A stretch of 45,251 nt of DNA from a virus (IMGVR_UViG_3300005830_000058:1-45251); one strand, 5' to 3'. Positions 28,755 to 45,251 are shown, counted from the first letter of the stretch. Translations and numbers: made by a program. Notes: generated by a model not told the origin, from the sequence alone.

Positions 28755-28805
28755 CACCCCTCGTCACCCGTTCCCACCGGTGGCGGGGGGTGCTTTCTTG
28801 TTGTG
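28755..28805 (+). terminator. Candidate intrinsic terminator after the beta-helix gene.
   Basis: The stem gcacccc (28755..28761) / ggggtgc (28788..28794) encloses the palindrome ccaccggtgg and is followed by tttcttgttgt. Confidence 0.5.
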
Positions 28806-28810
28806 CCCCT

Positions 28811-28839
28811 TGCGGCCCCGGGTGATCCGGGGTACGTTC
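28811..28839 (+). promoter_or_regulatory. Candidate sigma70-type promoter, TTGCGG-N17-TACGTT, with a palindromic spacer.
   Basis: The spacer ccccgg-gtgat-ccgggg is a 6-bp inverted repeat. The element lies about 40 nt upstream of the ATG at 28882 and resembles 19910..19939. Confidence 0.35.
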
Positions 28840-28881
28840 CAAGTGAACCGGGCGGCACCAAGGCCGCAGAAGGGACTCGCC

Positions 28882-29645: not shown

Positions 29646-30016
29646 ACCCCACAGCTAAGCGCCCGTGGCATGTTGTGATAACGGAGACCCTCGCCGGAAT
29701 AGAGCAACCCGTGAGTAGCACATACACCAAACCCAAGGCTGACCTTGTCGATGCCGACTGGGTCCGCCGGCAGATCGGCGAGCGCGAGCACTGCCGCTCG
29801 ATCTTCTCCGTCGAGGACTACTACGACGAGGACAACCTCCTCGCCGGCGAGTGGCTCGTCTTGTGGATCGGCGACTCCTGCACCACCAGCCTGCGCGGCG
29901 AGTGGCTCATCTCGCGCGATGACGCCGACGCCTGGTTCGAGCGTGGCGAGCGCGGCCTTGCCTCGCTGGTGGACGCCTGCCGCCGCACACCGAACGAGAT
30001 TGAGGACCCGCAATGA
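29642..30016 (+). CDS. Hypothetical protein, about 124 aa.
   Basis: The GTG at 29642 (GTGA overlap) lies within listed ORF 29468..30016. The upstream part is Arg-rich and looks artefactual. Confidence 0.6.
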   Translation: MNPTAKRPWHVVITETLAGIEQPVSSTYTKPKADLVDADWVRRQIGEREHCRSIFSVEDYYDEDNLLAGEWLVLWIGDSCTTSLRGEWLISRDDADAWFERGERGLASLVDACRRTPNEIEDPQ

Positions 30017-30333
30017 ACACCGACATCACCCTTCACGGCATCGAGAGCGGCGACGAGTTCTTCGGCCCGCCGAGAGTCGCCCGCCTTCCGAACGGCCGAC
30101 TCGCCATCGCACTCAAGCTGCGCACTCGGGTCGCCAGCACGGAGATCGGCGTCGTCGTCACCGGCGAGGCTGCCGCGCTGTCCGTTGCACGGCATCTGGA
30201 GGAACTGGCGCAGGCGCTGCGCGCCGCGTGCGCCGAAGCATTCGCGCGCGGTTTCTTTGGCGAGTCTCCGCGCCAGGGCGGGGCGGCGGGACTACACGCC
30301 GCCTCGCCCGCTCCTCCCGTCGAGCGGCGCTGA
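30013..30333 (+). CDS. Hypothetical protein, 106 aa.
   Basis: Listed ORF with an ATGA overlap. Confidence 0.6.
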   Translation: MNTDITLHGIESGDEFFGPPRVARLPNGRLAIALKLRTRVASTEIGVVVTGEAAALSVARHLEELAQALRAACAEAFARGFFGESPRQGGAAGLHAASPAPPVERR

Positions 30334-31283
30334 TGCGCCACGAGTTCGCGACCCGCGAGGAGTGGCTCGCCGCACGCGGCCTCGGGGCGAGCGACATCGC
30401 CGCCGCGCTGGGGCTCAGCCCGTACCAGTCGGCCTACGAGCTCTGGGCCATCCGCTCGAAGCTCTTGCCCGAGCCCGACCTGTCCGATCGCTGGACCGTG
30501 CAGGCCGGCATCGCGCTCGAGCCCGTCGTGGAGCGCTGGTACGCCGAGGAGAACGCCGAGCTGTACGAGTGCGACTTCTCCTCGGGCCGTCACGTCCTCT
30601 ACACCCACGACGAGTATCCCTGGCTGACCGCGTCGCCCGACTCCATGCTCGTGAACCGCGAGACGGGCGAGGAGGGCGTGCTTCAGCTCAAGACCACGTC
30701 CATCTGGAACGCGGACGCCTGGGTGGGCGGAGCGCCCCTGATTCACCAGGTCCAGGTGCAGGGCGAGATGGCCTGCACGGGGCTCTCGTTCGCCGTGCTG
30801 GCATGCATGCTGGGCGACCTGCAACCGCTCTACGCCGCGCACCTCTCGGGCGTGCCGATCGAGACGCTGCTCGACATGGCGCGGAGCGAGCACCTCCAGT
30901 GCGAGCTGCGCTACTACGTCGTGCCGCGCAATGAGCGCTTCATCGAGTGGATGCTCGCCGGGCTGCGCACCTTCCTCGACCACGTCGAGAGCGGCAACCC
31001 GCCCGCGCCTGACGGGTCGGACTCGTCCTACAAGACGATGGTCCGCCTGCTCGACGACACGCGCGAGAAGCCGGCCGAGCTGAACGCCACCGCCGATCTG
31101 CTCTGCGAGCAGTACGAGGAACTTCTTGCCGAGGAGCGCTCGATCGCCATCCGCAAGAAGGCCGTGCGCAATTCGCTCGTCCACATGCTCGACAAGAGCC
31201 CGAAGGGCACCACGCCCGCCGGCCGTCGGGTATCGTGTGGTAGCAAGTTCACGATATCGCCACCTAGAAAGGACTCGCCATGA
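30333..31283 (+). CDS. YqaJ/lambda-exonuclease-like recombination exonuclease, about 316 aa.
   Basis: The ATG at 30333 lies within listed ORF 29745..31283. It carries GLGASDIAAALGLSPYQSAYELW ... GIALEP ... ASPDSML ... LQLKTT, and it is paired with a downstream SSAP. Confidence 0.75.
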   Translation: MRHEFATREEWLAARGLGASDIAAALGLSPYQSAYELWAIRSKLLPEPDLSDRWTVQAGIALEPVVERWYAEENAELYECDFSSGRHVLYTHDEYPWLTASPDSMLVNRETGEEGVLQLKTTSIWNADAWVGGAPLIHQVQVQGEMACTGLSFAVLACMLGDLQPLYAAHLSGVPIETLLDMARSEHLQCELRYYVVPRNERFIEWMLAGLRTFLDHVESGNPPAPDGSDSSYKTMVRLLDDTREKPAELNATADLLCEQYEELLAEERSIAIRKKAVRNSLVHMLDKSPKGTTPAGRRVSCGSKFTISPPRKDSP

Positions 31284-32185
31284 GTGAAGAACGACGGATC
31301 GTAGAAGTCGGTCGTCGCGGGGTAACGCTCGCGAACTGGGACGACGTGAAGGGCTTCGCCCGCGCGATCGTCGCGGCGGACATGGTCCCCTACGCGCTAC
31401 TCGACAAGAGCGGCGACACCGAGCGTTCGATCACCCGCGTCGCGATCGTCATCGAGTCCGGGCTCGAGATGGGCCTTGCGCCGATGACGTCCATGCGCGG
31501 GTTCGCGGTCATCAACAACATGCCCGCCATCTACGGCGCGGTCGGCCTTGGGGTCTGCCAGAGCACCGGGCGTCTCGAGTCCGTCCGCGAGTGGTACGAA
31601 GTCGAGGGGCAGGCGGTCGCCCAGCCCAGCGACGACCCGACGTGTACGGCCTTCTGCGAAGTAAAGGCGCGGGACTGGACGGAGCCGTACGTCGGCAAGT
31701 TCTCCGTCGCTCAGGCCGTGGCCGCTGGCTTCTGGAAGAAGACCGACCGGAGTGGGAAGCCCTCCCTCTGGGTGACGCGCCGGTACGAGATGTTGATGTG
31801 GAAAGCGCGCTGGCGCGGCTACCGCGTGCCGTTCGCGCACGAGCTGAACGGGGTGCCCTTCTACGAGGAGGCGATCGACTACGAGCCGCAGGAGCCCCGT
31901 GACGCCGAGTTCACCACGAAGGCGCCGAAGACCCTGGACGAACTGGTGGACGGCGCCACGGCCCCTGAGAGCGCGCCTGACGCGACCGAGGTGGAGCAGC
32001 CCCCCGACGACGAGTTCCCCAAGGACGCGCCCGTTGGGACCGTCTGGGAGGCGCCTGGCGGGCAGCCGTGGGTGCTGCTTCCGACCGGGAAGTGGGAGAT
32101 GATCCCGAGCGAGGGAGAGATGACCAGCGACATCGTTGAGCGCATCAAGAGCGAGCGCAAGCTGTCTGGTGACCTGCCGTGGTAG
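31280..32185 (+). CDS. Single-strand annealing protein (RecT/Red-beta-like), 301 aa.
   Basis: Listed ORF. It lies immediately downstream of, and overlaps, the exonuclease gene. The core reads GLEMGLAPMTSMRGFAVINNMPAIYG, followed by an acidic C-terminal tail. Confidence 0.6.
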   Translation: MSEERRIVEVGRRGVTLANWDDVKGFARAIVAADMVPYALLDKSGDTERSITRVAIVIESGLEMGLAPMTSMRGFAVINNMPAIYGAVGLGVCQSTGRLESVREWYEVEGQAVAQPSDDPTCTAFCEVKARDWTEPYVGKFSVAQAVAAGFWKKTDRSGKPSLWVTRRYEMLMWKARWRGYRVPFAHELNGVPFYEEAIDYEPQEPRDAEFTTKAPKTLDELVDGATAPESAPDATEVEQPPDDEFPKDAPVGTVWEAPGGQPWVLLPTGKWEMIPSEGEMTSDIVERIKSERKLSGDLPW

Positions 32186-32325
32186 GCACGAACCTCTGGG
32201 ACCACCTGCACCGCCTGGTCCAGGTCGTAGATGATCTGTACGCCCGCGTCGCGATCACCTTCGTCTTCTGCATCGTCACGTTCCTGCTGTCCGTTGCCGC
32301 CCTGATCGTCGCGATCTGGAAGTGA
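32179..32325 (+). CDS. Small single-TM peptide, about 48 aa. Not in the ORF track.
   Basis: My manual translation from the GTG at 32179 gives VGTNLWDHLHRLVQVVDDLYARVAITFVFCIVTFLLSVAALIVAIWK. It fills the gap between two genes, and its stop overlaps the next start. Confidence 0.4.
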   Translation: MVGTNLWDHLHRLVQVVDDLYARVAITFVFCIVTFLLSVAALIVAIWK

Positions 32326-32654
32326 TGCCTGCCACCGACAATCCCACCCCGCTTCCCCCTGGCGTCGCCAAGCTCAACGCGATGCTATGCGGATGCTGCA
32401 CCAACGAGAACACCTGGGTCCCGATCCTGGAGGAGCTGGAGAGGCTCGATCGCGGCGAGTACCAGGGCGAGGACGGCCTCGCCGCAGCGATCGTGGATCA
32501 CCTGCACCTGTCCGAGCACGGAGTCTCGATCCGCGCTGGGTGGCTGACGGAGGAGGGAAAGGCCGCCCTGTCGTTCCTGCGCGAGTGGGGAGTTGACTGG
32601 ATGGACAAGGGCGAGTTCATCGACGACGAAGGCGTCTCACACGGGTTCTGGTAG
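32322..32654 (+). CDS. Hypothetical protein, 110 aa.
   Basis: Listed ORF. Confidence 0.6.
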   Translation: MMPATDNPTPLPPGVAKLNAMLCGCCTNENTWVPILEELERLDRGEYQGEDGLAAAIVDHLHLSEHGVSIRAGWLTEEGKAALSFLREWGVDWMDKGEFIDDEGVSHGFW

Positions 32655-32658
32655 TGCA

Positions 32659-33003
32659 ATGTCCAAGCCCCTCCCCGTCCGCCACGATCTCAAGCGCCCG
32701 AAGTACGGCACCTCGCCGAAGGACCAGCGCACCTGCGACGGGATCGTCTTCGACTCCAAGAAGGAGATGCGGCGCTACCAGTACCTCAAGCTCGAGAAGA
32801 AGGCCGGCAACGTGCTCACGTTCCTGCGGCAGACGCCGTTTCACCTGCCGGGGGACAGCCGCTACGTCTGCGACTTCACCGTCTTCTGGTCCGACGGGCG
32901 CGTGACGTTCGAGGACGTGAAGGGCGTGCGCACCGAGCAGTACAAGCTCAAGAAGCGCCAGGTCGAGGAGATCTACGCGCCGATCACGATCCTGGAGATT
33001 TAG
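32659..33003 (+). CDS. DUF1064-like protein (PD-(D/E)xK fold family), about 114 aa.
   Basis: The ATG at 32659 lies within listed ORF 32593..33003. It carries CDGIVFDSKKEMRRYQYLKL ... YVCDFTVFWSDGRVTFEDVKG ... YKLKKRQ. Confidence 0.65.
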   Translation: MSKPLPVRHDLKRPKYGTSPKDQRTCDGIVFDSKKEMRRYQYLKLEKKAGNVLTFLRQTPFHLPGDSRYVCDFTVFWSDGRVTFEDVKGVRTEQYKLKKRQVEEIYAPITILEI

Positions 33004-33620
33004 TGGAGCCCTACTACGACCATGCAGGCATCACGATCTGGCACGGCGACTGCCGCGAGATCCTGCCGTCGCTCAAGGCGGACGTGGTTGTGACTGATCC
33101 GCCTTACGGAGTGCTCGCGGATACCGGGTCCGCAGCAACACGAAGGAGTGGCGGGAATCAGGATTCTGGCCGTATAGCCTGGGACATCGCTCCGGACGTT
33201 GGTGTATGTACTGCCCTCCTGTCGTTCGGAGCAGCGATGATCTGGGGAGGTTTACACATGCACCTCCCGCCTACTCGCGGATATCTCGTCTGGGACAAGC
33301 AGATCGACGGGCTGAACTTCGGAGAGTGCGAAGTATGTTGGACGACGTTTCGATGGGCTCCACGCATATTTAGATACCGTGCAGTGTGCGTCGATGGGGG
33401 GAAGGTCCACCCTACGCAAAAGCCAGAGGCGCTCATGCGCTGGTGCCTTGAGCGCCCTGGAGTTCCAGGCGGTGCAGTCCTCGACCCCTTCATGGGCTCC
33501 GGCACCACGCTCCGCGCCGCGAAGGATCTAGGCCGCCGCGCCATCGGAATCGAGATCGAGGAGCGCTACTGCGAGATCGCCGCGAAGCGGCTCGCCCAGG
33601 AGGTTCTTCCGTTCGGCTAG
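33003..33620 (+). CDS. DNA methyltransferase (beta-class N6-adenine/N4-cytosine type), 205 aa. Orphan.
   Basis: Motif IV (VVTDPPYG) precedes motif I (DPFMGSGTT), and HPTQKPEAL is present. I found no adjacent endonuclease. Confidence 0.85.
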   Translation: MEPYYDHAGITIWHGDCREILPSLKADVVVTDPPYGVLADTGSAATRRSGGNQDSGRIAWDIAPDVGVCTALLSFGAAMIWGGLHMHLPPTRGYLVWDKQIDGLNFGECEVCWTTFRWAPRIFRYRAVCVDGGKVHPTQKPEALMRWCLERPGVPGGAVLDPFMGSGTTLRAAKDLGRRAIGIEIEERYCEIAAKRLAQEVLPFG

Positions 33621-33784
33621 ATTCAGGATCGCCGGCGGCGGCAGCGCGGGAAGGTACATCCGCAGGGATGGGGACCAGGCCCGCGCGATGCAAGGTCCGC
33701 CGTCGGCACTCTCTCGCCCGCCGGCTGCTCCACGAACCGAAAGGAACGCGGCGCTCTCGGAGGCTGGCGGGCGAAAGGCGGCCT

Positions 33785-33805
33785 CGGTGGGGGTGGTCCC
33801 CGCCG
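33785..33805. other. Hairpin in the convergent gap between the two modules.
   Basis: cggtgggg / ccccgccg pairs over 8 bp including one G-T pair, with a 5-nt loop. No clear U-tract on either strand. Confidence 0.3.
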
Positions 33806-33814
33806 GGGCCGTCA

Positions 33815-33919
33815 CTACATCAGCCACGCGCCAATGGCGAACGTCAGCGCGATCAGGATCGCCACCACGGCGACCGCCTTCGCGAACCAGTCCCAGTCGC
33901 TCTCGTGCTTGAAGCTCAC
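33815..33919 (-). CDS. 34-aa single-TM peptide (MSFKHESDWDWFAKAVAVVAILIALTFAIGAWLM). Last gene of the late operon.
   Basis: The GTG at 33919 overlaps the upstream stop as GTGA. This is the only protein-like part of listed ORF 33815..34717. Confidence 0.5.
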   Translation of the reverse strand: MSFKHESDWDWFAKAVAVVAILIALTFAIGAWLM

Positions 33920-34329
33920 GCCTTCGTGGGCGGCGGCGCGACCACCGGCTCTCCCCTGCGGATGCGCTTGCCGTCGCGCACTACGTTCGTCGCCTTGACC
34001 GCTGCCCCGACGGTGCCAGCCCCTCCGACCAAGAGCGCCATCAGAACCTCGGCCCAGTTCTCCTTGATCGCGTTCCCGATCTGGCCGCCGCGCTCTGCGA
34101 TCTCTTGCACCTTCGCGGCGAGCTCCTCCCTCGTCTGCGCGCCGCTCTCGCGGATCTGAAGGATCGCACCGTCGATGTTCGTCTGCCCGCTCTCGAGCGC
34201 TCCGACGGCCTGCTCCACGCCGCGAAGGCCCGTGTCGAGGTAGCCACGCACGTCCTCGATGTCCCCCGACGTGGCGAGGCAGGATTGCAGGGTGAGCGCT
34301 AAGAGAGCTGCTAAGGCTTTCATGTTCAT
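33916..34329 (-). CDS. Protein with unimolecular-spanin-like architecture, 137 aa: lipoprotein signal plus a C-terminal TM helix.
   Basis: MNMKALAALLALTLQSC is a lipobox-like LQSC with Cys17. The middle is helical, and the C-terminal hydrophobic stretch is VLMALLVGGAGTVGAAV. Confidence 0.55.
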   Translation of the reverse strand: MNMKALAALLALTLQSCLATSGDIEDVRGYLDTGLRGVEQAVGALESGQTNIDGAILQIRESGAQTREELAAKVQEIAERGGQIGNAIKENWAEVLMALLVGGAGTVGAAVKATNVVRDGKRIRRGEPVVAPPPTKA

Positions 34330-34332
34330 CCC

Positions 34333-34707
34333 CTACTTCTTGGACTCGATGTAGAACACGACCACGTCCCACGCCATCGTTCCAAAGACGGCCAGAACGC
34401 CGAAGATGACCCAGCGCACCAGGCGCTTCCACTCGGCGGCGAAGTCCTCCACGCGCCGCAGTCGCTCGAGCGCCCCGGGGGAGCCGTTGCCGACCAGGAT
34501 CTTGCGGAGCATGTCGCGCTCCTCGCGGGCGACGCCCAAGCCAGCCTGCATTGACGACTGAACCGCGGCGCTGGCCTTCTGCATGTCGAGCAGATCTCTC
34601 TGGAGCTCCTGGTGCTGCGAGTCGTTTCGGAGCACATGCTCCTCCTGCCGCGCGCGCACGTCTGAGACTGCCGCCATGAGTTGCTCGATCGTTGCGGGTT
34701 CGCTCAT
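34333..34707 (-). CDS. Tail-anchored membrane protein, 124 aa. Holin or spanin-partner candidate.
   Basis: Listed ORF. The N-terminus is coiled-coil-like and the C-terminal TM helix is VRWVIFGVLAVFGTMAWDVVVFYI. The ATGA overlap at 34704..34707 couples it to the giant gene's stop. Confidence 0.6.
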   Translation of the reverse strand: MSEPATIEQLMAAVSDVRARQEEHVLRNDSQHQELQRDLLDMQKASAAVQSSMQAGLGVAREERDMLRKILVGNGSPGALERLRRVEDFAAEWKRLVRWVIFGVLAVFGTMAWDVVVFYIESKK

Positions 34708-37700
34708 CGGGTCGCATCCCAGGCGGCCTTGCTGAACTCGTTGTAGAGGCGCAAGAGGCGCTCCTCGTCGTTGCGGTCGCGGAGATCCTTCTCGGCGCTC
34801 AGGTAGAGCTTGAGCCGGCCACGGAACGCCCAGAGCGGGTGCTCCCGAACCTCGGCCGCCGTCTCGCGGTCGCCCGCCTCACGGTAGCGTTTCTCCTGGG
34901 ACTCCAGGGCCTTGATCTGGTCCCGCCAGCCCCGGAACGCCTGCCCGGCCAGGTAGGGGGGCTGCTCGCCCACCAGGCGGCGCAGGAGGGGCACGTCCGC
35001 GACGCGGATATCCTCGCCCGCGAGCAGCTTGGCGGGCAGATTCGCGGTCCTCAGCGTCGTCGCGCCGAGCCCCCCCGAGTACGTCTTCGCCAGGTGCTCG
35101 ATCACCTCGGGCGACCAGTCGAAGGGGAACCCGGCGCTGACTTCCGTCGGGTCCTTGAAGGTCTCGTTCAGCCAGGCCGTGACCGCGCGCGTCTGCGGGT
35201 TCACGTTGGGCCAATACTTGTCCGCCTCGGCCTTCATGGAGCCGGGGAAGTCCGCCGGCTTGATCGGGCGGCCCGCCCAGTCCTCGTTGGTCGCCACCTC
35301 GACGAGCGGATCCGTGATGGTGGGAGAGATGGTTCGCAGCGCGCCCTTTGCGCTCAGCATCTCGCCTCCGCCGCCGACCGGGTTCGTGCTGTCGAGCACC
35401 GACTCCATGACGTTCGCGAAGCCCTCGCCCGTCGAGCGCCGCCCGAGGCCGAAGACCGAGCGGAGCTGCCGGCTCATCTCCTGGCCCGCCGTGTGGAAGA
35501 TGTTGTAGACGAACGGCGCGGGAATCTTCGCCTTCCACCCACCGGGGAGCATGAAGATGATGTTTGAGCGCTTCTCGTAGTCGGGGACCTTGTCCCAGAA
35601 GTTCTGCCCGTCGTCGTCGTCGCCCGCCATCAGGTAGTTGAGCATGTCCAGCGCCATGCTGAACGCGACGAGGCCGGCGACCATGCGCACGACCGGTCGG
35701 TGCCCCTTGCTGTTCTTGCTCGCAAGCGCCTCCACCGTGCGCCGCGTGCCCTGGATCGAGGCGTTCGAGAACATGAAGAAGGAGTTGAGCGCGTTGCCCG
35801 CCTCGCCCTTGTCCTCGAAGTTCGTCGTCAGGCGCTTCGCCTCGAGCGCGGCGCGCAAGCGCGGCATGCCGAGATCCTTGCGCGCCTTGACGTAGAACGA
35901 GAGCCGGGCCGCGTTCTCCACCGAGTCGCTCCACGCGCCGAAGGTGTCGCCAAGGCGCTTGAGCCACGCGCCCATCTGGTTCGGAGCGGAGATCGAACGC
36001 ACTTCCTTCTCCAGGCGCTTCATCTGCGTCTGAAGGTCGTTCACGTCGAAGGGCGAGATCGCAGCCCCGTCCGCGAAGTAGTCGGCGGTGTACTGCTCGA
36101 GCTCGTTCCTCGGCACGAACTCCTCGCCCGCGCGCTGCGCCGCATAGAAGCGGTTGAGCGCGCCGAGGGCCTTGGGGGCGCCCTTGAGAACGCCACGCGC
36201 GAACTCAGCCCCGTGCTCGGACGAGTTGAAGTACGCCGTTCCCGCGTCCCGCATCGCGTTGAACACCGGGAAGACCGGGTTCCACCTGGTCGCGAGCGCC
36301 GCCATGACGCGCGTGTAGTTGCCGATCGCCTGCACCCAGGCCGCGATGTCCTGCGCGCCGAGGTTTGAGAGCGTCCTGCCCAGGCGCTTGTGGTCGCCCA
36401 CGAAGCGGATCCAGTGCTGCTCGCCGTCGATGCGCACCCCGAGCCACTCGCCGTCCGTGTTGGTGCGGCGCGGGTCACCCTCGGTGACGACTTCCTCCTG
36501 GCCGTCCTTCTTCTTGATGACGCGCCGGTAGACGGCGGGGTCGATCTCGATCGCGCCCTTCAGCTCGTCGGCGTACTGCTCGACCATCCCGTAGAACTGC
36601 TGCTGCACGCGGTTCTTCTCGCCCCGGTACACCGCTCGGTCGAGCTGCGTCAGGATGCGGGGGATCACAAGGTCAGCGAGCTTGCCCTGCTGCTCCTCGC
36701 TGATGTCGCCCCAGCCCATCGCGCGCTTGCTCTCGCTGCCACGGATGTCGATGCCGCGACCGATCCCAAGCGCCGCGATCAGGTTCCCGCTGTCGTCGAT
36801 CTCGGCGTCGATCAGGGGCGCATAGAACTCGTACGCGCCGCGCCACTTGTCGATCACGTCGGGGGACTCGAGGCCGTACCCGACGATCAGGTTGCGCGCC
36901 TCCTCGACCGCCGCGTCCGTCGCGCGCGCCACGTTCGCGTAGAGCTCGGCGTGTTCGCTCGCCTCGACGCGGGCCAGCAGGTCGTCGGCCCAGGAGTCGC
37001 GGAAGCCCGACCCCGGGTTGTTCTCGAGCCCCATCTCCGGGTTGATCCTGGCGATCTGCGCGTTGCGCTCGGGGACGTGCCGCGCGATCAGGTAGCTGCC
37101 AAGGTCGCGCAGCTCGAGGCCGGCTGAACCCGCAGCCCGGACGGCCTTCTCGACCGCGAGGTGGTACTTGCGCTTGATCTCCTGGAGCTTGTTCCCGGTC
37201 TTGCTCGCGCGGAGCTTCTCCAGCAGCAGCACGCTCGAGTCGTCCGAAGCCCCGAGCGCGCTCTCGACGTGCGCCAGGTCGCCGAGCCGGTCGACCCAAA
37301 GCCGCATCTGCGTGGCGGCCATGCTCTTGTCTAGGTCGATCGGGCGCTTCTCGATCACCTGCCCCGTCGCCTGGGCCGCAGGCGTCGCGGCGAAGCGCGG
37401 CTGGCCTGCCTCCATCACGGAGGAGCGCAGCTCGTCGGTGATCGGTAGGGCGTGGGCGGGTGACGCTTCGCCACGCGCGAGAACGTCACGCATGATCCGC
37501 TCGCGCTGTTCGGGAGTGAAGCGGGCCAGGTCAGCGGGTATGTCCGCCGCAGCCTCAGCATACGCGCTGTCGGTCCATATAGTCGCCCCCGTCACCCTCG
37601 CCCCGTGCTTCTTCCCTATCTTGTTGGCGGCGTTGACGAGGATCTTGTCGTAGAAGTCCTCCATCCCCTTGCCGCCGATGGTGAGGTTCGGGCCTGAGAC

Positions 37701-40700
37701 GGAGCCGGTGGTCTCGGAAAGGATGCGCTCCGCGATGGACTTGCCGAGATAGTCTTCGATCGTCTTTGTGTCGCCTCGCGTTGACACTCCGCGAGCGTCG
37801 AACTGCTCCTCCCACGAGACACTTCCACCCGTGCTCGCTATCACCTGCGTCACGCCGCCGCCGAGGCCCGACCAGGAGATTTCGTCCACTACGCGGCGGT
37901 ACTCCGTCTCATACCGCTCCACCTGCTGCCGCCCCGTCGTCCAGCCCAGCTTGTCGAACCCGTGCTCCGCTGCCCAGCGCACCATGCGGCGCATCGCCAG
38001 GAGCGGCCAGGTGGTCTTGAAGGGAGCGTCAGGGACGCCTGGGGTCTTCCCTTCGCCAACCTTGCGCGTCAGCAACTCGACCGGAGCATTTGCCCATGTA
38101 CCTGCGTTGTTGATGGCCTCCTCAGAAGTAGAGCCATACCCGACAGGAACCTCCGCGCCCGAGATGTTGGCGACGTAGTATGCCTCCCACTGCTCTTTGG
38201 GTTGGGCATACCCCTTCTTCCTCCCCTCCTGGTGCCAGTCCGACTGCACCTCCTCAACGAACAGCACGCGCTTGCCCTCGCTGTCCGTGCGCTCGTTGAA
38301 GCGGACGTGAGCTAGGACGTTCGGGATGTCGCTGTAGTGGCCGCCGGTGAAGGCTGCTTTCCTGGCTAGTTGGTTGGCCGTTGCCTCATCCCGAGCCCTC
38401 TCTCGCTCGTACGCACCGCGAGCGAAGTCCTCGTCTCTCGCCCCCTCTTCGGTGAGCCATGTGCGCTTGAACTCCTCGAAAGACAGGAACGGAACGCCCG
38501 CAGCGCGCACTGGCAGCGTCAGCAGCAGTTCGCGGTAGTTCTCGCCGCCGGGTAGGGCGAGGCTCTCATTCCTGTAGCGCACGGGATCACGCGGGCCGTA
38601 TGCCCCTTCATGGATGGACTTGACTTCAGCGCGCTCTTCGTCCGTCCACTCGCTGTCCGGCTTCGCCTCAATCTCCTGAAGGCGCGCGTAGGCTTCGGTA
38701 CCGCCAAGCACCTTCTCCTCTACCCGCACGTTCGACGCGCGCACCGCATCGAGCAGCTCGCCCTTCTCCACGCTCTTCTTGTCCGAGAGGTAGTCGAGGA
38801 TCCCGCTCCACTCGATCTCCTCCTCCTTCACGCCAGCGTTCCTAAGCGTGTTCAGCACCTGGGTAGCCGTCGCGCGCTTGCCTTGGAGCTTCTCCTCCAG
38901 GACGGACTCGAGCTTCGAGTAGAAGCCGAGCGGGTCGGGCGCAGCGGCGAAGCGCGCCTCGCCCTGGCCCGGAACGTAGCGCGTCCCGCCCTCTCGCCCC
39001 ACGCCGCGCAGGCGCTCACCGACGCCACGGCCCTCCAGCACGTCCAGCTCGGCCTGCATCTCCTCGCGCAGGGCGGCCGGGATCTGCATCCGGTAGCGGT
39101 CGAGCGTCTCCGTGAGCGTCCCGACCACCTCCTGCCGGGTCACGCCGGGGTCCTGCGCCTCGGCAACCGCGTTCCCGTAGGACTGGGCGCGCGCGATCGC
39201 CGCCTCTGCGGCTGACGTGGCCCGCTCGGTGACGAGGCCGCCTTCCAGGCGCGCGCGGTCCTCGGGGGTCGCGGCGAACCGCTCGGCCCGCTCCTCCCCG
39301 CGCTCGTACGCCTCGGCGGCGATCTCGGCCCGGGACGGGGCCTCTCGGCGCGCGCGGCCCGCGCGGGGCTCCTTCGACCGCTGGGCACGGGCCTCCTTGG
39401 TGGCGGCCTGGGCGGCCTCCTGCCCCTCGACCGCCTCCAGCTCGGCCCGGATGGCCGCCGCGCCCTCGGCGTCGCCCCTGGCCTCCAGCCGGTTCGCCTT
39501 CTGCCGCGCCCGCTTGCGCTGGCCGGGGGTGCGGAGGGGGGTTGCTACGTCCGTGCTACGCGGCTGCTGCGTTGGTGCTACATCCGGTACTTCCCTGACC
39601 CCTTCGGCGGTCTCCACCCCCGGGGCCTCGGCCACTTCTGTACCAGTTTCAAATGGTGCGCCAATGGTGACCAATGGTTCGGTCGCCTTTCGCTGCACCC
39701 TCTCCTCTAACGGCACCACGAGCAGGTCCAGGGCCTCCCGGATGCTCTGGGCCGCCCGGTACGGGCGGGCGCCCGCTTCCCGCTTCCCGGCCCGGGTCTC
39801 CTTCCCGAAGGTCCGGTTGAAGAAGTCCAGCACCGCGTCCACGATCCGCTGGAGCAGGGTGCGGTTCGCGCCGCTCATGCGCTCCACGAGGCCCGGGTCG
39901 CGCGCCACGGCGTCCACGATCGGGCTCAGGCGCTCGACGGACCTGGCGAGGGCCTCGGAACGCGCCGCGCTCACTTTGCGGCCGAAGGACAACGCTTCCG
40001 AGAGCGTATGCCCGATGTTCGTCTCGTACTGCGCCCTGGACTGAGCGAGGAACCCGGGAAGCTGCTCCTCGATCGCCGCCTCGAGGTTCGCCCACTCCGC
40101 AGGCTTCACGTCCTCGAGCTCGTGGGACGCCTCGTGCCGGGCGATGCTCATAATGAACGTCTCGTCGGACGTTGACGCATCCACCAGCACGGTTCCGCGG
40201 TTGTGGGTCCCACGCACCCTGGCCGACTTGGGGAGCTCGACGAAGTAGGGGTCCAGCCCCCGCTGGGTCAGGAACTCCGCCCCGCGGGCCTGCGCGGGCG
40301 TCCTGGGCTCCACCAGGCGGTGCGGGGCGGGCTCCGCGCCCTCCGGGGTGTTCTTTCGCTGCATGGCCCTGGCGAGCGCCTGGGCCGTCGTGCTGGCGTT
40401 CTGCACCTCGACCGGCTCCGTGGCCTCGGCGGGGGCCTCCTGCGCTCCTGGCTCGCCCTGGGCTGCCTGGCCGGGCTCCTGCGGTGTTCCACGTGGAACA
40501 TCCTCCTGGGGGAACGCCCCGCCCGGCTCGAGCGGGATCGGGGAGCCGAAGGCGTACCCCGCCCCCTGGATCGCCACGCCGGGCGCCCCGAAAGCGACCA
40601 TCTCGGCCGCCAGTTGAGCCGTGCCCGGCCAGTTCCACTCGTCCCCGAGCAGCGCCGTCCGCATCAGCTCGCCGACGCGCTCCTCGCCCATCTCGCCGAT

Positions 40701-41837
40701 CACGCCGTCCCAGCCGCCCTTGGCGCCCACCCTGCGCAGGAAGTCCACCACGCCCTTGTCGGGGTTCTTCTTGAGCCACCGCCCCATGAGCTGCGTCGCC
40801 ATCAGGCGCGCCTTCTGGCCGCCCGGGAGCGCGTCGAGAACCTTTTTCCCGACCCCGGGAGGCAGCGCGGCGCCGAGCTCCTCGGAGAACGTCTCGATCC
40901 AAAGGTCGAAGTACCCCTCGGGCAGCGTGTCCGCGAGCTCGGGCAGGGTCTGGTCGAAGACCATGCGCACCTCCCCCGCGTCCCCGTACTCGAAGCCCAG
41001 CCCCGCCTGCTCGAGAGCCCGCTCGTAGGCGTTGGCCGTCGCGCGCCCGCCGCCATCCATGCCGGCCAGCCGGGGCGCCTCCTCGATCATGGCCGTCCGC
41101 GCCGCCGCCGTGACCGCCATCGACGCGAGCTTAGTCACCCCGCGCTTCACGAGCCCCTCGGTGACCTTCTCCGTGGTCTCCTTGACCGCCTTCCCGAGCG
41201 CCGCTCCCGCGACCTTCTTCGCCCCCGAGATCACCCCGCCCGTCGCCGCGAACTCGACCGCGAACCCCGGGAGCTGGGTCAGGATGCTGCCGACCGTGTA
41301 GCCGAACCCGCCCTCGGTGTTGGCCTGGTCGAGGAAGTCGAGCACCTGGGCCTTCTGGTCGTCGGTCGCCTGGCCCGCCTCCCACGCCTTCGCGGCGCCG
41401 TAGACCCCCGCCATGCGGACCGCTTGGAACCCGCCACCCACGACGGGAAGGAGCTCGCCCGGGCGCTCCTTGGCCTCCTTCAGCGCCTGGCCGAAGGTGC
41501 CCTCGGGCGACTTGCCGTAGCGCATCGCCAGCGCGGTCGCGTCGATGCCCCAGCGGGTCCCCATGTCGAAGAGCTCGACCCGCGTCGCGCCCTTCTCCAC
41601 CAGCCCCTCGATCTCGCGCTGGAGGAGGTACTGGCCTGCCTTCTCGGCCCCGATGGCCTTGTACGTCTCGAGCGGCGCGCCCTGGGCCGCCAGGTCGTAG
41701 ACCATCTCGGGCGTGGGGGCGGCCTGCGGGCTAGCGTCTAGAGGCTCCTGGGGCTGCTGCGCCGATGCTACGTCCGTGCCTACACCGCTAGCCGTAGCAG
41801 CCGGCGGCGGCGGGCTCGCTGCGTCCGTGATCGTCAT
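34704..41837 (-). CDS. Giant multi-module virion protein, 2377 aa, in the position of the T7 gp16 internal core/ejection protein. It contains an HEASH zincin-like motif.
   Basis: - Listed ORF, uninterrupted and about 16 percent of the genome.
- It carries HEASH (40136..40122) and EEVQSDWHQEGRKKGY.
- A C-terminal TM segment reads VVRMVAGLVAFSMALDMLNYLMAG.
- It follows two Gln/Gly-rich and coiled-coil core-like proteins. Confidence 0.85.
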   Translation of the reverse strand: MTITDAASPPPPAATASGVGTDVASAQQPQEPLDASPQAAPTPEMVYDLAAQGAPLETYKAIGAEKAGQYLLQREIEGLVEKGATRVELFDMGTRWGIDATALAMRYGKSPEGTFGQALKEAKERPGELLPVVGGGFQAVRMAGVYGAAKAWEAGQATDDQKAQVLDFLDQANTEGGFGYTVGSILTQLPGFAVEFAATGGVISGAKKVAGAALGKAVKETTEKVTEGLVKRGVTKLASMAVTAAARTAMIEEAPRLAGMDGGGRATANAYERALEQAGLGFEYGDAGEVRMVFDQTLPELADTLPEGYFDLWIETFSEELGAALPPGVGKKVLDALPGGQKARLMATQLMGRWLKKNPDKGVVDFLRRVGAKGGWDGVIGEMGEERVGELMRTALLGDEWNWPGTAQLAAEMVAFGAPGVAIQGAGYAFGSPIPLEPGGAFPQEDVPRGTPQEPGQAAQGEPGAQEAPAEATEPVEVQNASTTAQALARAMQRKNTPEGAEPAPHRLVEPRTPAQARGAEFLTQRGLDPYFVELPKSARVRGTHNRGTVLVDASTSDETFIMSIARHEASHELEDVKPAEWANLEAAIEEQLPGFLAQSRAQYETNIGHTLSEALSFGRKVSAARSEALARSVERLSPIVDAVARDPGLVERMSGANRTLLQRIVDAVLDFFNRTFGKETRAGKREAGARPYRAAQSIREALDLLVVPLEERVQRKATEPLVTIGAPFETGTEVAEAPGVETAEGVREVPDVAPTQQPRSTDVATPLRTPGQRKRARQKANRLEARGDAEGAAAIRAELEAVEGQEAAQAATKEARAQRSKEPRAGRARREAPSRAEIAAEAYERGEERAERFAATPEDRARLEGGLVTERATSAAEAAIARAQSYGNAVAEAQDPGVTRQEVVGTLTETLDRYRMQIPAALREEMQAELDVLEGRGVGERLRGVGREGGTRYVPGQGEARFAAAPDPLGFYSKLESVLEEKLQGKRATATQVLNTLRNAGVKEEEIEWSGILDYLSDKKSVEKGELLDAVRASNVRVEEKVLGGTEAYARLQEIEAKPDSEWTDEERAEVKSIHEGAYGPRDPVRYRNESLALPGGENYRELLLTLPVRAAGVPFLSFEEFKRTWLTEEGARDEDFARGAYERERARDEATANQLARKAAFTGGHYSDIPNVLAHVRFNERTDSEGKRVLFVEEVQSDWHQEGRKKGYAQPKEQWEAYYVANISGAEVPVGYGSTSEEAINNAGTWANAPVELLTRKVGEGKTPGVPDAPFKTTWPLLAMRRMVRWAAEHGFDKLGWTTGRQQVERYETEYRRVVDEISWSGLGGGVTQVIASTGGSVSWEEQFDARGVSTRGDTKTIEDYLGKSIAERILSETTGSVSGPNLTIGGKGMEDFYDKILVNAANKIGKKHGARVTGATIWTDSAYAEAAADIPADLARFTPEQRERIMRDVLARGEASPAHALPITDELRSSVMEAGQPRFAATPAAQATGQVIEKRPIDLDKSMAATQMRLWVDRLGDLAHVESALGASDDSSVLLLEKLRASKTGNKLQEIKRKYHLAVEKAVRAAGSAGLELRDLGSYLIARHVPERNAQIARINPEMGLENNPGSGFRDSWADDLLARVEASEHAELYANVARATDAAVEEARNLIVGYGLESPDVIDKWRGAYEFYAPLIDAEIDDSGNLIAALGIGRGIDIRGSESKRAMGWGDISEEQQGKLADLVIPRILTQLDRAVYRGEKNRVQQQFYGMVEQYADELKGAIEIDPAVYRRVIKKKDGQEEVVTEGDPRRTNTDGEWLGVRIDGEQHWIRFVGDHKRLGRTLSNLGAQDIAAWVQAIGNYTRVMAALATRWNPVFPVFNAMRDAGTAYFNSSEHGAEFARGVLKGAPKALGALNRFYAAQRAGEEFVPRNELEQYTADYFADGAAISPFDVNDLQTQMKRLEKEVRSISAPNQMGAWLKRLGDTFGAWSDSVENAARLSFYVKARKDLGMPRLRAALEAKRLTTNFEDKGEAGNALNSFFMFSNASIQGTRRTVEALASKNSKGHRPVVRMVAGLVAFSMALDMLNYLMAGDDDDGQNFWDKVPDYEKRSNIIFMLPGGWKAKIPAPFVYNIFHTAGQEMSRQLRSVFGLGRRSTGEGFANVMESVLDSTNPVGGGGEMLSAKGALRTISPTITDPLVEVATNEDWAGRPIKPADFPGSMKAEADKYWPNVNPQTRAVTAWLNETFKDPTEVSAGFPFDWSPEVIEHLAKTYSGGLGATTLRTANLPAKLLAGEDIRVADVPLLRRLVGEQPPYLAGQAFRGWRDQIKALESQEKRYREAGDRETAAEVREHPLWAFRGRLKLYLSAEKDLRDRNDEERLLRLYNEFSKAAWDATR

Positions 41838-41849
41838 CGCGACGGATCC

Positions 41850-43202
41850 CTACTGGTAGCGGCCGGGCGGGAGCGCGGGAGCGGGCGCGTAGTTGCCCTC
41901 TTCCGCCGACGCGGCAACCCGCTTCTGCATGATCGCCTTGGCCTTCTCGAGCGCCTTCTGTTCCTCGGGCGACGCGGCGTTGATCGCGACATCGAGCAGA
42001 TTCTTGAGCGGACTCCATGTGGCGGCATCAATGATCGTGCCGCCGACGCCCTTGCTTCCTCCTCCTGAGCCGCCACGGTCCACCGGCTTGTTCCCCGCGC
42101 TGCGTCTGTCAGCGATCGCGTCGAGACGGCTCGAGTCAACACCCGGGATGCCAAGGTCCACGCTCGCGCCCTGCTGCGCGCCCGCACCGCCCTGCGCCGC
42201 GCCCATCGCGCCTCGCATAGCCGCAGCGGTGTCGCCGAAGAAACCGCCAGGGACGGCCCTGTTCTGCCGCTGTCCCTGCGAGTAGCGCTCCCACGACTCG
42301 AGCTCGTCCTGTCCGTCCGCATAGCCGATGTCGCCCATCAGGGCGCTGCGGCCCCCGTCCTTCGACGTGAGGATCTCGGCGTAGAGCTTGTTCACCGCCT
42401 CAGGGTCGGTGACCATCGCCTGGAGCTCCTCGTCCCAGCGGCGGCCGAAGGAGCCGTTCATCACGCCCTGGCCGAGCGCGGCGAGCGCGGGCGCCTTGTT
42501 GCCGAGGAACCCACCCAGGTCCGACATCGCCGTCTCGACGAAACCCTGGCCCATGCGCATGCGCTCGGAGGCGTCCTGGGCGATGAACGTCTGGCGCACC
42601 TGGATCCCGTCCAGCTCGCTGCGGATCTCGCGCATCCGCTGAAGCGACGTGTTCGGGTCCTGGAGCTCCTGGGCGTACTGCTCCTGCGCCTGCTGCATCA
42701 CAGGGTCTAGGTCGCCAACCGGCTGACCTTGCGCGTCCGTCGGCGGTGCGAACACCTCCTGCATGCGCTGGCCGAGCTGGCTGTACGTCTGCATGCGCGC
42801 CCGGTTCTCGATCCGCGCCTGCGCCTCGGTCAGGAACATGTCCCGATCGGGCCCCTCCATGCGCGAGGCGATGCGCATGACCTTCGTCGCCTCAGCAGCG
42901 CCACCCATCTGCTCGAGCGACTCGTACTGCGCCCGCAACATGGGCTGCTCAGCCATGTCCATCCGGCGCTCCGCGAGGCCGATCTCGGCGTCCTGACCGG
43001 CGGCGAACCGACTCTCGCGCGCGTCGAGAAGCTCGGCCTCGCGCACCTTGAGCTTCATGTTGAGCGCGGCGATCGCGTTGTCGCGGAAGTCCGCGTTCTG
43101 CTCGCGCTCACGACCGCTCTTGTACTGCGCCATCTGGAGCAGCGACTGGGCGAACTTGTCCGCCCCGGCGGGGTCGGTGTACGTCGGGACTACGGTCGGC
43201 AT
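41850..43202 (-). CDS. Internal virion (core-position) protein, 450 aa; coiled-coil with a Gly-rich tail.
   Basis: Listed ORF. The call rests on position (T7 gp15-like) and composition. Confidence 0.65.
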   Translation of the reverse strand: MPTVVPTYTDPAGADKFAQSLLQMAQYKSGREREQNADFRDNAIAALNMKLKVREAELLDARESRFAAGQDAEIGLAERRMDMAEQPMLRAQYESLEQMGGAAEATKVMRIASRMEGPDRDMFLTEAQARIENRARMQTYSQLGQRMQEVFAPPTDAQGQPVGDLDPVMQQAQEQYAQELQDPNTSLQRMREIRSELDGIQVRQTFIAQDASERMRMGQGFVETAMSDLGGFLGNKAPALAALGQGVMNGSFGRRWDEELQAMVTDPEAVNKLYAEILTSKDGGRSALMGDIGYADGQDELESWERYSQGQRQNRAVPGGFFGDTAAAMRGAMGAAQGGAGAQQGASVDLGIPGVDSSRLDAIADRRSAGNKPVDRGGSGGGSKGVGGTIIDAATWSPLKNLLDVAINAASPEEQKALEKAKAIMQKRVAASAEEGNYAPAPALPPGRYQ

Positions 43203-43204: not shown

Positions 43205-43957
43205 CTATTTCCCCTTGAACCCGGCAGCCGCCAGCATCATCTGGAGGCCCATGTCCTGAGCGTACTGGCCCGACAATCCCTGGCTCAGCATCTGACCGAA
43301 GTCGGGCGCCTGCCCGAACCCGCCCGCGAGATCGAACGCTCCCATGCCAGCCTGAATCCCCGTGCCGATCGAGCCGAGCACGGACGGCTCCTGGATCGGG
43401 CCCACGCTCTGCGTCAGGCCGAGCTGCTGCTGGCCGCCCTCGAACTGGAGCTGGTTCTTGCTCCCGTACAGGTTCGCCATGTTGGCCCCGGTCTGCTGGT
43501 ACGTCCCGTACTTCTGCCCCTCGAGCGCGGCGAGCGCGCCGCCGTACTGCGCGCGCGCCTGGCCCGACTGCCGCGCCACGTCGCCCGAGATGCCCCGGTT
43601 GAGGCTGTCCAAGACCGTCGTGTTGTAGAGCCCTCGATTCGTCGCGCTCTGCGCAGCGTTCGACTGCGCCTGCGCGCCGCCGGCCTTGATGTCCGAGAGC
43701 TGCTGGTGCAGTTGCGAGCCCAGGTGGCGGCGCTGGGCCTTGTACTGCTGGTTCGCGATCTTGTCGGCGCCCTGCGTGTACTGCTTCTGCTGCTGCGCGA
43801 ACGGCCCGTAGAGCGCCTTCTGGTAGGTCTGGGCGCTCATCTGCTGGAGCAGGTCTAGGTAGTCCTGCTGCGCCTTGGCCGCGCTCTTGCCGCCGAAGTA
43901 GTCTCCAAGCCCGGCGGCGACGCCCGACGCGGCTGCCAATGCCATCGGTAGAACCAT
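43205..43957 (-). CDS. Internal virion (core-position) protein, 250 aa; Gln/Gly/Ala-rich.
   Basis: Listed ORF with a hydrophobic N-terminus (MVLPMALAAASGVAAGLG). The call rests on position (T7 gp14-like). Confidence 0.6.
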   Translation of the reverse strand: MVLPMALAAASGVAAGLGDYFGGKSAAKAQQDYLDLLQQMSAQTYQKALYGPFAQQQKQYTQGADKIANQQYKAQRRHLGSQLHQQLSDIKAGGAQAQSNAAQSATNRGLYNTTVLDSLNRGISGDVARQSGQARAQYGGALAALEGQKYGTYQQTGANMANLYGSKNQLQFEGGQQQLGLTQSVGPIQEPSVLGSIGTGIQAGMGAFDLAGGFGQAPDFGQMLSQGLSGQYAQDMGLQMMLAAAGFKGK

Positions 43958-44415
43958 CAGTTCGTCTCCATGTGTTGCGCGCCGCGCAGGCTGTCGAGCA
44001 GCGCGTTGAATCGGGTCACGAGTGCGTTGATCGACGCCTGAAGCTCGGCGGCTGAACTGTCGGTGTTCTCCACGGCGCTGTCGACCGCGTTGGCCGCTTC
44101 GATGCGTATGGTCGTGCCCTCGCCCTGAAGGCCCGGCCCCGCGACGAACTCGGCGTCGATCTCGAGCGTGCCGTCGTCGAGCAGCACGAGCGACTGGCCG
44201 GTGAGCACAACGAGGCCGCCCGATGTCACCTCGAGGCCGCCTGCGGCTCCGACGCGGATCGCGATGCGCCCCTGGTTCGTGAAGTACACGGGCTCGTCCA
44301 GGTCGTCCGCGCGCACGTCCGCCTGGGCCGTGCGGCGAGCACGGGGGTCGCCACCGCCAAGCACCACGCTTCGGCGACCACGGCCCCGCCAGCCTGCGAC
44401 CGGCTTGTTACTCAC
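43957..44415 (-). CDS. Hypothetical virion protein, 152 aa.
   Basis: The GTG at 44415 overlaps the nozzle-position gene's stop by 8 nt. It has a beta-rich segment (GGLEVTSGGLVVLTGQSLVLLDDGTLEID) followed by a C-terminal helix. Confidence 0.65.
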   Translation of the reverse strand: MSNKPVAGWRGRGRRSVVLGGGDPRARRTAQADVRADDLDEPVYFTNQGRIAIRVGAAGGLEVTSGGLVVLTGQSLVLLDDGTLEIDAEFVAGPGLQGEGTTIRIEAANAVDSAVENTDSSAAELQASINALVTRFNALLDSLRGAQHMETN

Positions 44416-45251
44416 GGACCCGCTCCATCGAGCCGAGCTCGCCGTTGATCCACATCCGCTCGAGCGACCACTGCTCGGACGCGAGGGCCGAGCGCAGCTT
44501 CACCCAGCAGAACGCGCCGCGCATGCGCTCGTAGATCGTGGGGTTGCGCCCCGCGCGCAGGGTGCCCTCGTACACGGGCAGGCCAGGGTCGTCCGCCACG
44601 TCGCTCTGGAAGAGCTGCACCTCCACCTCGCCCTGGAACGAACTCTCGTCGCCCGTTCCGAGGACGGCCGTGAACTCGTTCCACACGGCCTCCCAGCCGG
44701 GCTCGGGTGACTGGAGCGGGCCGATCATTACCTGGCTGTCGATCGCCTGCCCGTCGTCGTTCACCGCCTCGCGGTCCCAGACGCGCACGTACCCGTCGTT
44801 GCCGCCGATCAGGAGCCGGCGGTCATCGGGGTCGTCACCGTCTATGAGGAGCGACGCCGTCGGCTGGCGGGAGTACGTGCCTTCGTTCGCGCCGAAGATG
44901 TCTTCCCACCAGGAGTCGCTTTTCTGCTCCCAGAAGTAGTGCGTCGCACGCGCCGAGGACTCGCCCCTCGGGACGAGGAATATGTGTAGCCCTTCATCCT
45001 GATAGTTCCAGTTCAGCTCCACCCGGTACGTCGTCAGGTCAACCCCTTGCAGCCGACGCTCGATCCGGTGGAGCGAGATGCGATCGAACTGGCCGCTGTA
45101 GGGATTCATGCGGTAGAGCCCGCCGCGCGACCCGAAGAAGTAGAGCACTCCCTCTGGGTCTCGCGTCCAGGCGCGTCCGAACGCGATGCCGGTTTCGACG
45201 CTCACGTTGTCGAACTCGCCGCCCGCCATCGGGTCCCCGGTCAGGCGCCAG
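44408..45251 (-). CDS. 3' part of the same ~1403-aa nozzle-position protein. The track shows it as a 273-aa ORF starting at an internal Met.
   Basis: The reading frame stays open upstream of Met 45229 to the window edge and continues into 120..3488 after removing the overlap. The stop is TAA at 44410..44408. Repeated motifs resemble a beta-propeller (GGLYRMNP, LLIGGNDGYVRVWD). Confidence 0.85.
   Translation of the reverse strand, partial: WRLTGDPMAGGEFDNVSVETGIAFGRAWTRDPEGVLYFFGSRGGLYRMNPYSGQFDRISLHRIERRLQGVDLTTYRVELNWNYQDEGLHIFLVPRGESSARATHYFWEQKSDSWWEDIFGANEGTYSRQPTASLLIDGDDPDDRRLLIGGNDGYVRVWDREAVNDDGQAIDSQVMIGPLQSPEPGWEAVWNEFTAVLGTGDESSFQGEVEVQLFQSDVADDPGLPVYEGTLRAGRNPTIYERMRGAFCWVKLRSALASEQWSLERMWINGELGSMERVRE
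45132..45251. repeat. Terminal overlap, copy 2 (identical to 1..120).
   Basis: Same comparison as for 1..120. Confidence 0.95.

Follow-up and report, generated by a model that had tools for sequence, protein, structure and literature searches.

The 45,251-nucleotide (nt) viral sequence IMGVR_UViG_3300005830_000058, which we analyzed over its whole length and refer to as the window, carries on its minus strand a single gene for a protein of 2377 amino acids (aa). An exact direct terminal repeat of 120 base pairs (bp; positions 1-120 = 45132-45251) indicates that the assembly closes into a complete circle of 45,131 bp. Of this genome, 15.8% is taken up by the giant gene, in line with an earlier note on this DNA that had placed one unbroken open reading frame (ORF) here at about 16 percent. 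The protein is a chain of modules, running from an N-terminal module through a zincin-like domain, an Ala/Glu/Arg-rich spacer, and a domain termed Module B to an ~850-aa C-terminal module. We propose that it is probably a capsid-packed, ejected polyvalent protein and at the same time the largest (third) internal protein of a short-tailed phage with a T7-like late-gene order. The features of the gene are the following:

34704-41837, minus strand: giant gene, 2377 aa plus stop, ATG start; last large gene of the minus-strand virion block
40533-41516, minus strand: Module A, Gly/Ala-rich N-terminal module (aa ~108-435), with an LPD14 match at aa 314-400
39738-40322, minus strand: zincin-like domain, Z (aa ~506-700), with HEASH at aa 568-572 (nt 40122-40136)
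38943-39632, minus strand: Ala/Glu/Arg-rich charged spacer (aa ~736-965), 30-35% charged
39264-39281, minus strand: RFAATP, first junction copy (aa 853-858), within the charged spacer
38937-38954, minus strand: RFAAAP, second copy (aa 962-967), at the border of spacer and Module B
37380-38942, minus strand: Module B (aa 966-1486), covered by alignment A1 and by an AlphaFold2 (AF2) model
37380-37397, minus strand: RFAATP, third copy (aa 1481-1486), at the border of Modules B and C
34707-37331, minus strand: Module C (aa ~1503-2377), a mostly helical, conserved C-terminal unit
35625-35696, minus strand: hydrophobic helix (aa 2048-2071) followed by DDDDG, the only strongly hydrophobic segment of the protein
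34983-35600, minus strand: Pfam LPD38, PF18857 (aa 2080-2285), E 2e-34, 119.8 bits against a cut-off of 27

DNA with a G+C content of 67% is rich in spurious long ORFs, and the window holds 162 of at least 100 aa. In the relative contig L003 (JGI metagenome 3300041024, contig Ga0451564_114083), moreover, the corresponding gene is called in two pieces. A chance ORF, or a chimeric fusion of separate genes, is nevertheless extremely improbable as an explanation of the giant gene. Its G+C content by codon position (0.69/0.48/0.90) follows the pattern of the window genes that have homologues, and four separate regions of the protein have independent homologues with their order kept. The L003 relative (60-67% identity) aligns collinearly over the module borders, and its two pieces result from a change of frame within Module B that leaves the rest of the alignment unbroken. 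The ATG lies 10 nt past the stop of the upstream gene. Not one of the 2377 residues is a cysteine, which fits translocation and processing.

A search of 5.8 billion proteins returned 83 matches, the best at 27-32% identity and none covering more than 57% of the giant protein. They map to three blocks with independent homologues (aa ~108-435, ~970-1486, and ~1503-2350), and none of the 83 falls in aa 436-950. The exact protein sequence is not on record in public assemblies, none of 50,697 phage records matched the gene in a megablast search, and a search for related loci based on Module C, made in viral contigs and twice in metagenome contigs, confirmed nothing. Sequence and profile searches of the PDB with the whole protein and with alignments A1, A2, and A3 yielded nothing credible, and NCBIfam gave no match.

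The module layout was followed by profile scans in 96 collected relatives. C1, C2, and LPD38 are contiguous and C-terminal in all 61 proteins that have the three parts, and Module B lies upstream of Module C wherever both occur. The zincin-like domain follows Module A in both proteins with a complete Module A and a canonical Z (the giant protein and P0086). In P0092, the shortest relative at 1460 aa, only Z and C are seen, in support of a conserved chassis around a variable middle. Each of the modules A, Z, B, and C has its own set of homologues in different giant proteins and thus recurs independently of the others. This particular combination is unmatched in public data, though combinatorial novelty is the norm for polyvalent proteins.

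The chain of distinct modules that the earlier note had described can thus be recognized, and most of its links are as drawn there. The N-terminal region is indeed rich in Gly and Ala (together ~30% over the first 500 aa), the zincin-like unit has its HExxH at aa 568-572 in a signature that is invariant in 14 sequences, and all strings quoted from the middle block are present (LPGGENYRELLLTLP at aa 1095-1109, VLAHVRFNERTD...QSDWHQEGRKKGY at aa 1174-1210, FKTTWPLLAMRRMVRWAAEHGFDKLGWTTG at aa ~1273-1302). The C-terminal region contains one hydrophobic helix (aa 2048-2071), where a transmembrane helix had been named, and PLLRRLVG at aa 2283-2290. The "long charged coiled-coil" is charged as described (30-35%, Ala/Glu/Arg-rich), but a long coiled coil is unlikely with Pro or Gly at about every seventh residue. 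Of the domains named for a domain-by-domain search, Pfam recognizes LPD38 and, marginally, LPD14, so that the suspected large polyvalent-protein-associated domains are there. Transglycosylase (SLT/lysozyme), ART, and nuclease domains were absent from the Pfam scan of the giant protein, and SLT/lysozyme domains from every segment at E<=10. The suggested structure predictions gave models for Modules B and C, with predicted template-modeling scores (pTM) of 0.71 and 0.74 and no fold match in the PDB.

Module C has tblastn matches in 341 phage records. PHROGs matches (14770, 616, and 10691, all giant-protein families of unknown function) extend over aa ~1437-2354, and a helical tail (aa 2290-2377) ends the module. 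Its AF2 model (mean predicted local distance difference test score, pLDDT, 76.4; pTM 0.74) is a large fold built mainly of helices and includes a small beta-sandwich. Compared with the BFVD database, this model finds 64 matches at E<=0.001, with TM-scores of up to 0.81 over ~900 aligned columns. The matches are C-terminal pieces of long phage proteins named as LPD-containing, LT_GEWL, RelA/SpoT, or methylase proteins, including those of Ralstonia phage Alix and Escherichia phage PTXU04. Pfam LPD38 therefore captures no more than the final quarter of a conserved fold of ~850 aa.

The sharing of this module raises the question of a more specific function. Module C is common to JC1 gp69 and Bcep22 gp75, which are virion-associated and annotated as "DarB-like antirestriction protein," and the giant protein might by analogy be packaged to shield incoming DNA from type I restriction by means of a methylase and a helicase. 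At the domain level this is contradicted, since no methyltransferase or helicase domain occurs at Pfam E<=10 in any segment of the giant protein, nor in NCBIfam. In addition, only Module C is shared, and in JC1 gp69 it lies outside the methylase/helicase region. We therefore hold an antirestriction role of this kind to be very unlikely.

At the other end of the protein, an Ala/Pro-rich leader (aa 1 to ~100) precedes Module A. The Pfam LPD14 match within this module is borderline: with a cut-off of 27 bits, it reaches 23.3 bits when the whole protein is scanned and 27.4 bits when the N-terminal segment is scanned by itself. Module A also stands at the N-termini of P0069, P0074, P0077, P0079, P0082, P0083, and P0086.

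The zincin-like domain was followed by an exhaustive phmmer search with aa 490-736, which found 13 relatives: the L003 protein, P0084, at 70% identity, and 12 further giants at 25-33%. In these 12 the domain lies at residues ~300-790, and Module C is C-terminal in 8 of them, as it is in the query. Across the 14 sequences of alignment A2, an Arg, the H-E-x-x-H motif, two Glu, and a Pro are invariant (H568, E569, H572, E628, and E635 in the giant protein). The arrangement HExxH...E...E (aa 568-635) has the appearance of a gluzincin-like signature. In the phage-type polyvalent zincin-like hub, an HExxH helix is joined by a downstream Glu helix after a small beta-sheet, and zincin-like domains have been proposed to cut polyvalent proteins into functional units (Iyer et al. 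2017, PMC5512222). With hhalign, the HExxH region aligns to unannotated regions of P0028 (probability 65%) and P0054 (75%). No Pfam or PDB metallopeptidase matches the domain; the best Pfam scores are DUF6782 at E 0.012, in one member, and WLM at E 0.65. A Pfam scan of all A2 members at E<=10 returned no recurrent family.

In P0028, a Shiga toxin (Stx) phage protein, the HExxH region occupies aa 1475-1632, outside any Pfam model and between LPD1 (1351-1430) and MuF_C (1740-1829). Identity of the zincin-like domain with Pfam MuF_C was considered and rejected, as the two regions of P0028 are separate.

Between the zincin-like domain and Module B lies the charged spacer, whose homologues are restricted to the close relative (60% identity to P0084/L003). 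Of its 230 aa, 34 are Pro or Gly, about one per 7 residues, and its longest run free of both is 20 aa. This frequency makes a long continuous coiled coil unlikely, and the region looks like a flexible charged spacer with short helices.

The spacer and the two ends of Module B are marked by the repeated peptide RFAA[AT]P, observed 3 times against an expectation of 0.001. The copies use different synonymous codons, which points to conservation of the peptide and not of the DNA. In the AF2 model, the motif lies in a low-confidence linker after the last helix of Module B. Related xFA(A/I/V)(A/S)P junctions stand ahead of modules in 7 of the 12 other giants with the zincin-like domain, and P0089 carries RFAIAPP...SR.FR.WFG three times. 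In L003 (3542-4431), an extra insert of ~295 aa lies exactly at the junction of Modules B and C; it starts with AYHGSG..., has a sub-threshold match to ART-PolyVal, and is flanked again by (R/K)FAA. The presence of this ART-like insert at a marked junction indicates that the middle of the protein is exchangeable.

Module B begins with a small helical N-subdomain (FYSKLE...GVKEEEIEWSG), followed by an alpha/beta core with the motifs LPGGENYRE, GGH...N..AH.R...R, and EE.QSDWHQ.G...GY, and by the later motifs PDAPF..W, TTG.QQ..RY, and GG.GM..FYD. The AF2 model (pLDDT 76.7, pTM 0.71) resolves the N-subdomain, the alpha/beta core, and a beta-rich subdomain. A profile search places at least 1836 proteins in the family at E<=1e-10. 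The best 120 matches have a median length of 730 aa, and all but four of them are without any Pfam domain. In an alignment of 121 sequences, 112 columns are at least 90% conserved, many of them His, Glu, Asp, Arg, or Gln. The near-invariant set comprises R1102-E1103, H1167, H1177, R1179, E1195-E1196, Q1198-S-D-W-H-Q1203, R1284, Q1305, R1308, and Y1396-D1397. Module B appears to be an enzyme-like domain. No Pfam, NCBIfam, or PDB sequence match was found, and the A1 members gave no recurrent Pfam family at E<=10.

The best PDB matches of the Module B model in Foldseek are GNATs (SSAT, RimI, AtaT, and the ICL2 C-domain), and they are weak (E 0.15-0.8, probability 0.1-0.5, TM-score at most 0.28). 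The order of secondary-structure elements in the model is compatible with GNAT topology, for which we took beta1-alpha1-alpha2-beta2-beta3-beta4-alpha3-beta5-alpha4-beta6, with the coenzyme A (CoA) loop between beta4 and alpha3, as reference. The Q/RxxGxG/A CoA-binding loop motif is absent from the sequence, and none of 23 members has a GNAT Pfam match. A reading as a PD-(D/E)xK nuclease, suggested by motif resemblance only (an ExQ strand and a QxxxY helix), found no support: no nuclease is among the Foldseek matches.

Stand-alone Module B proteins of 599-891 aa, without any Pfam domain, are encoded in several phage contigs (L006/L007 8001-10250, L004/L005 8001-9800, L008 8001-10676). One T7-like contig has the gene between the nozzle gene and putative fiber genes (the latter assigned by position only), and a P22-like contig has it immediately upstream of terL. 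Because the stand-alone gene can lie within a T7-like internal-core block, Module B may belong to the ejection machinery and not to the anti-defense effectors.

Extended to the whole protein, this would make it a part of the ejectosome or internal core with a mechanical task only, equivalent in function to T7 gp16 and with no anti-host effector role, in which Module B, the zincin-like domain, and Module C build or open a conduit across the envelope, for example by cutting cell wall or lipoprotein. The ~730-aa stand-alone form in the gp15-like slot of a T7-like phage and the overwhelmingly single-domain nature of the Module B relatives in phages are consistent with such a role. So are the requirement of a Module C-fold protein for PTXU04 infection, the conduit role proposed for gp47 by the phi24B authors, and the lack of any recognized anti-defense domain in Pfam scans of the giant protein. 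Against these stand the exchangeable middle, with its ART-like insert in the close relative, and the other giants with Module C, which carry methylases, SNF2 helicases, ART, RelA/SpoT, or GGDEF domains and not conduit parts. Pfam detects no peptidoglycan hydrolase domain, and in the P22-like phage Module B sits next to TerL instead. On balance, we consider this mechanical role unlikely.

The position of the gene bears on the preferred reading of an ejected polyvalent protein. The giant gene shares strand and block with terS, terL, and portal genes, an SU10_adaptor-like gene, and a T7_gp14-like gene, and is hence placed among the late genes. On the minus strand, an 852-aa gene is followed by terS, terL, and portal, three genes without assignment, and a 708-aa gene with an SU10_adaptor match; then come genes for proteins of 1403, 152, 250 (T7_gp14), and 450 aa, and the giant gene. 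This order parallels that of T7 genes 11 to 16. The position corresponding to T7 gp16, as the earlier note had put it, is therefore borne out, with the giant gene following a T7_gp14-family gene and one 450-aa gene. Its remark that core-like proteins precede the gene is supported for the 250-aa protein; the 450-aa neighbor has no family match. The neighboring and other annotated genes are:

43205-43957, minus strand: Gln/Gly-rich internal virion protein of the T7_gp14 family, 250 aa (Pfam PF24072, E 1.3e-8, 35.5 bits with a cut-off of 27); upstream of the giant gene, with one gene in between
41850-43202, minus strand: 450-aa helical Glu/Gln-rich protein at the gp15 position, directly upstream of the giant gene; no family match
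34333-34707, minus strand: protein of 124 aa, hydrophobic helix at the C-terminus; start codon overlapping the stop of the giant gene (ATGA)
44408-45131 joined to 1-3488, minus strand: 1403-aa ORF across the window ends, of which the linear window shows the last 273 aa only
14369-16927, minus strand: 852-aa gene upstream of terS, with a coding G+C pattern; no PHROG, Pfam, or NCBIfam match
18451-19314, plus strand: primosomal-like protein
29745-31283, plus strand: RecE-like exonuclease
32593-33003, plus strand: Holliday junction resolvase
33003-33620, plus strand: DNA methyltransferase

The 1403-aa protein has no Pfam or PDB match. Its position between the SU10_adaptor-like and gp14-like genes suggests that it may be a nozzle or tail protein, and viral contig L012 conserves its C-terminal part. 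Portal-anchored viral contigs (L011-L014) keep synteny through the adaptor-like and 1403-aa genes and stop before the giant gene. The nearest TerL proteins (35-37% identity) are from Thermobifida and Streptomyces phages, and the portal has no match among cultured phages. In contigs L001 and L002, the LPD38 giants are likewise the last late gene, with an integrase or opposite-strand early genes next.

Downstream of the giant gene, the 124-aa gene occupies a place that is taken in L003 by a 123-aa gene. It is followed by a gene for a 137-aa protein starting MNMKALAALLALTL, with a signal-peptide-like start (both genes within 33916-34707, minus strand), and the two may form a lysis cassette. A plus-strand ORF at 33668-34159, overlapping this region, is without a coding G+C pattern. 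A scan for terminators and promoters 3' of the giant gene was uninformative. The plus-strand block at 18000-33620 carries replication and recombination genes, and no integrase was seen.

The analysis shows which modules are present, how they are ordered, that they recur in other proteins, and which genes surround the giant gene; for relatives, presence in virions and a requirement for infection have been reported. These findings are consistent with the following course of events. The giant protein would be made late and packed within the capsid. On infection, it would be expelled through the portal and tail channel, after or along with the gp14-like and 450-aa proteins, passing as a loosely joined string of modules. 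The conserved ends, that is, the N-terminal module with the zincin-like domain and the ~850-aa LPD38-containing C-terminal module, would form a chassis that drives incorporation and ejection, with the conserved hydrophobic helix possibly inserting into the envelope. The middle would be exchangeable cargo, here Module B, and the HExxH domain would probably cut at the exposed RFAA[AT]P junctions and so free the modules. The resemblance to polyvalent proteins noted earlier gains from LPD38 (E 2e-34), the marginal LPD14, the HExxH unit, the recurring modules, the virion-borne LPD38 relatives, and the gene position. It is conceivable, though doubtful, that Module B founds a large undescribed enzyme family of podophage capsids whose members are freed in the host by zincin cleavage at xFAAxP junctions.

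Several points weigh against this proposal. Packaging, ejection, and junction cleavage are steps that we infer, the suggested ejection role being drawn from gene position and from relatives. The zincin assignment draws on motifs and on hhalign probabilities of 65-75%, without a match to a named family, and the junction motif is absent from several relatives, such as the Stx-phage protein. Neither Module B nor Module C has a fold match in the PDB at Foldseek E<0.001. The sole hydrophobic helix is moderate (Kyte-Doolittle 1.65) and part of a globular helical domain in the AF2 model. The Gln/Gly/Ala-rich 250-aa protein of the T7_gp14 family has no pairwise similarity to T7 gp14 itself, and no relationship can be detected between the genes upstream of the giant gene and those that precede the LPD38 giants of L001 and L002. 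Homology to the T7 and N4 ejected proteins was not found. When Modules B and C were aligned by hhalign to T7 gp15 and gp16, the probabilities did not exceed 1% (0.1-1% for gp16), and for Module C and Z against the C-terminal 1400 aa of the N4 virion RNA polymerase (vRNAP), gp50, they were at most 0.9%. Uniform homology to a single ejection or core protein, which the earlier note had named as the finding that would speak against a polyvalent protein, was accordingly not seen in the T7 and N4 comparisons. The Foldseek PDB search with Modules B and C also returned no T7 core protein, in a library whose coverage of the solved T7 core structures is uncertain.

Giant capsid-packed proteins are the least understood part of short-tailed phage entry and a reservoir of proteins acting in the first seconds of infection. 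The giant protein leaves the picture of the polyvalent class unchanged and offers compact experimental handles. The "LPD38" domain is the tail end of an ~850-aa fold found in virion-borne proteins, one of which is required for infection, and the conserved ends with an exchangeable middle argue for a delivery chassis with swappable cargo. One such cargo, Module B, is very common in phages and described in no database. The repeated RFAA[AT]P junctions are testable candidate processing sites; if the zincin-like domain does cleave at xFAAxP, this would be the first concrete cleavage-site motif for the long-standing idea of polyvalent self-processing.

Among known systems, T7 gp16 (internal virion protein D, 1318 aa) is alike in position, following a gp14-family gene and one more near the end of the late block, and is the largest ejected core protein, the role presumed by analogy for the giant protein. 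It differs in its N-terminal lytic transglycosylase domain, which was not found here, and the giant protein is, as anticipated, much longer (2377 against 1318 aa, or 1.8 times). In phage N4, the ~3500-aa vRNAP is expelled as "beads-on-a-string" with gp51 and gp52, the outer-membrane and periplasmic parts of the channel (PMC13434306), and gp50 carries a zincin-like domain (Iyer 2017, PMC5512222). N4 gp50 is likewise a giant multi-domain capsid-packed protein, and its three-gene layout with gp51 and gp52 is comparable to that found here, but it has an RNA polymerase domain, for which the giant protein shows no Pfam match.

Closer relatives share the C-terminal module itself. Bcep22 gp75 and JC1 gp69 (~4500 aa, from Burkholderia and Ralstonia podophages) have the same module including LPD38, and their gene closes the virion module and takes up 22% of the genome. 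They are detected in purified virions; JC1 gp69, with LPD38 at aa 4195-4401, gave 51 unique peptides in cesium chloride (CsCl)-purified particles (PMC9144972). They differ in carrying an N-terminal lytic transglycosylase, a methylase, an SNF2-type helicase, and LPD3, none of which was detected here. In Escherichia phage PTXU04, the 2198-aa polyvalent protein gp25 is represented in BFVD by two pieces of 1099 aa, the second of which matches Module C. In Foldseek, its C-terminal half thus shares the fold of Module C (E 3.6e-19, TMq 0.62), with only ~16% identity when the structures are aligned. Knock-down of gp25 by CRISPRi-ART causes a large drop in plating efficiency (PMC11879866).

The Stx phages of the 933W/phi24B type (phi24B gp47, 2811 aa; P0028, 2783 aa) share ~29% identity over aa 1503-2295, the whole C-terminal module. 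Their giants carry LPD5, LPD1, and MuF_C, none of which was found in the giant protein, and are without Module A, Module B, and the RFAA[AT]P motif. They are alike in being the product of a late gene, with a presence in virions known from proteomics, and in an HExxH region that aligns with the zincin-like domain (hhalign 65%). In phi24B, gp47 (LPD1, LPD5, LPD38, MuF-C) is abundant in virions, is absent from the cryo-EM model, and has been proposed to be an ejection protein (bioRxiv 10.64898/2026.04.10.717836).

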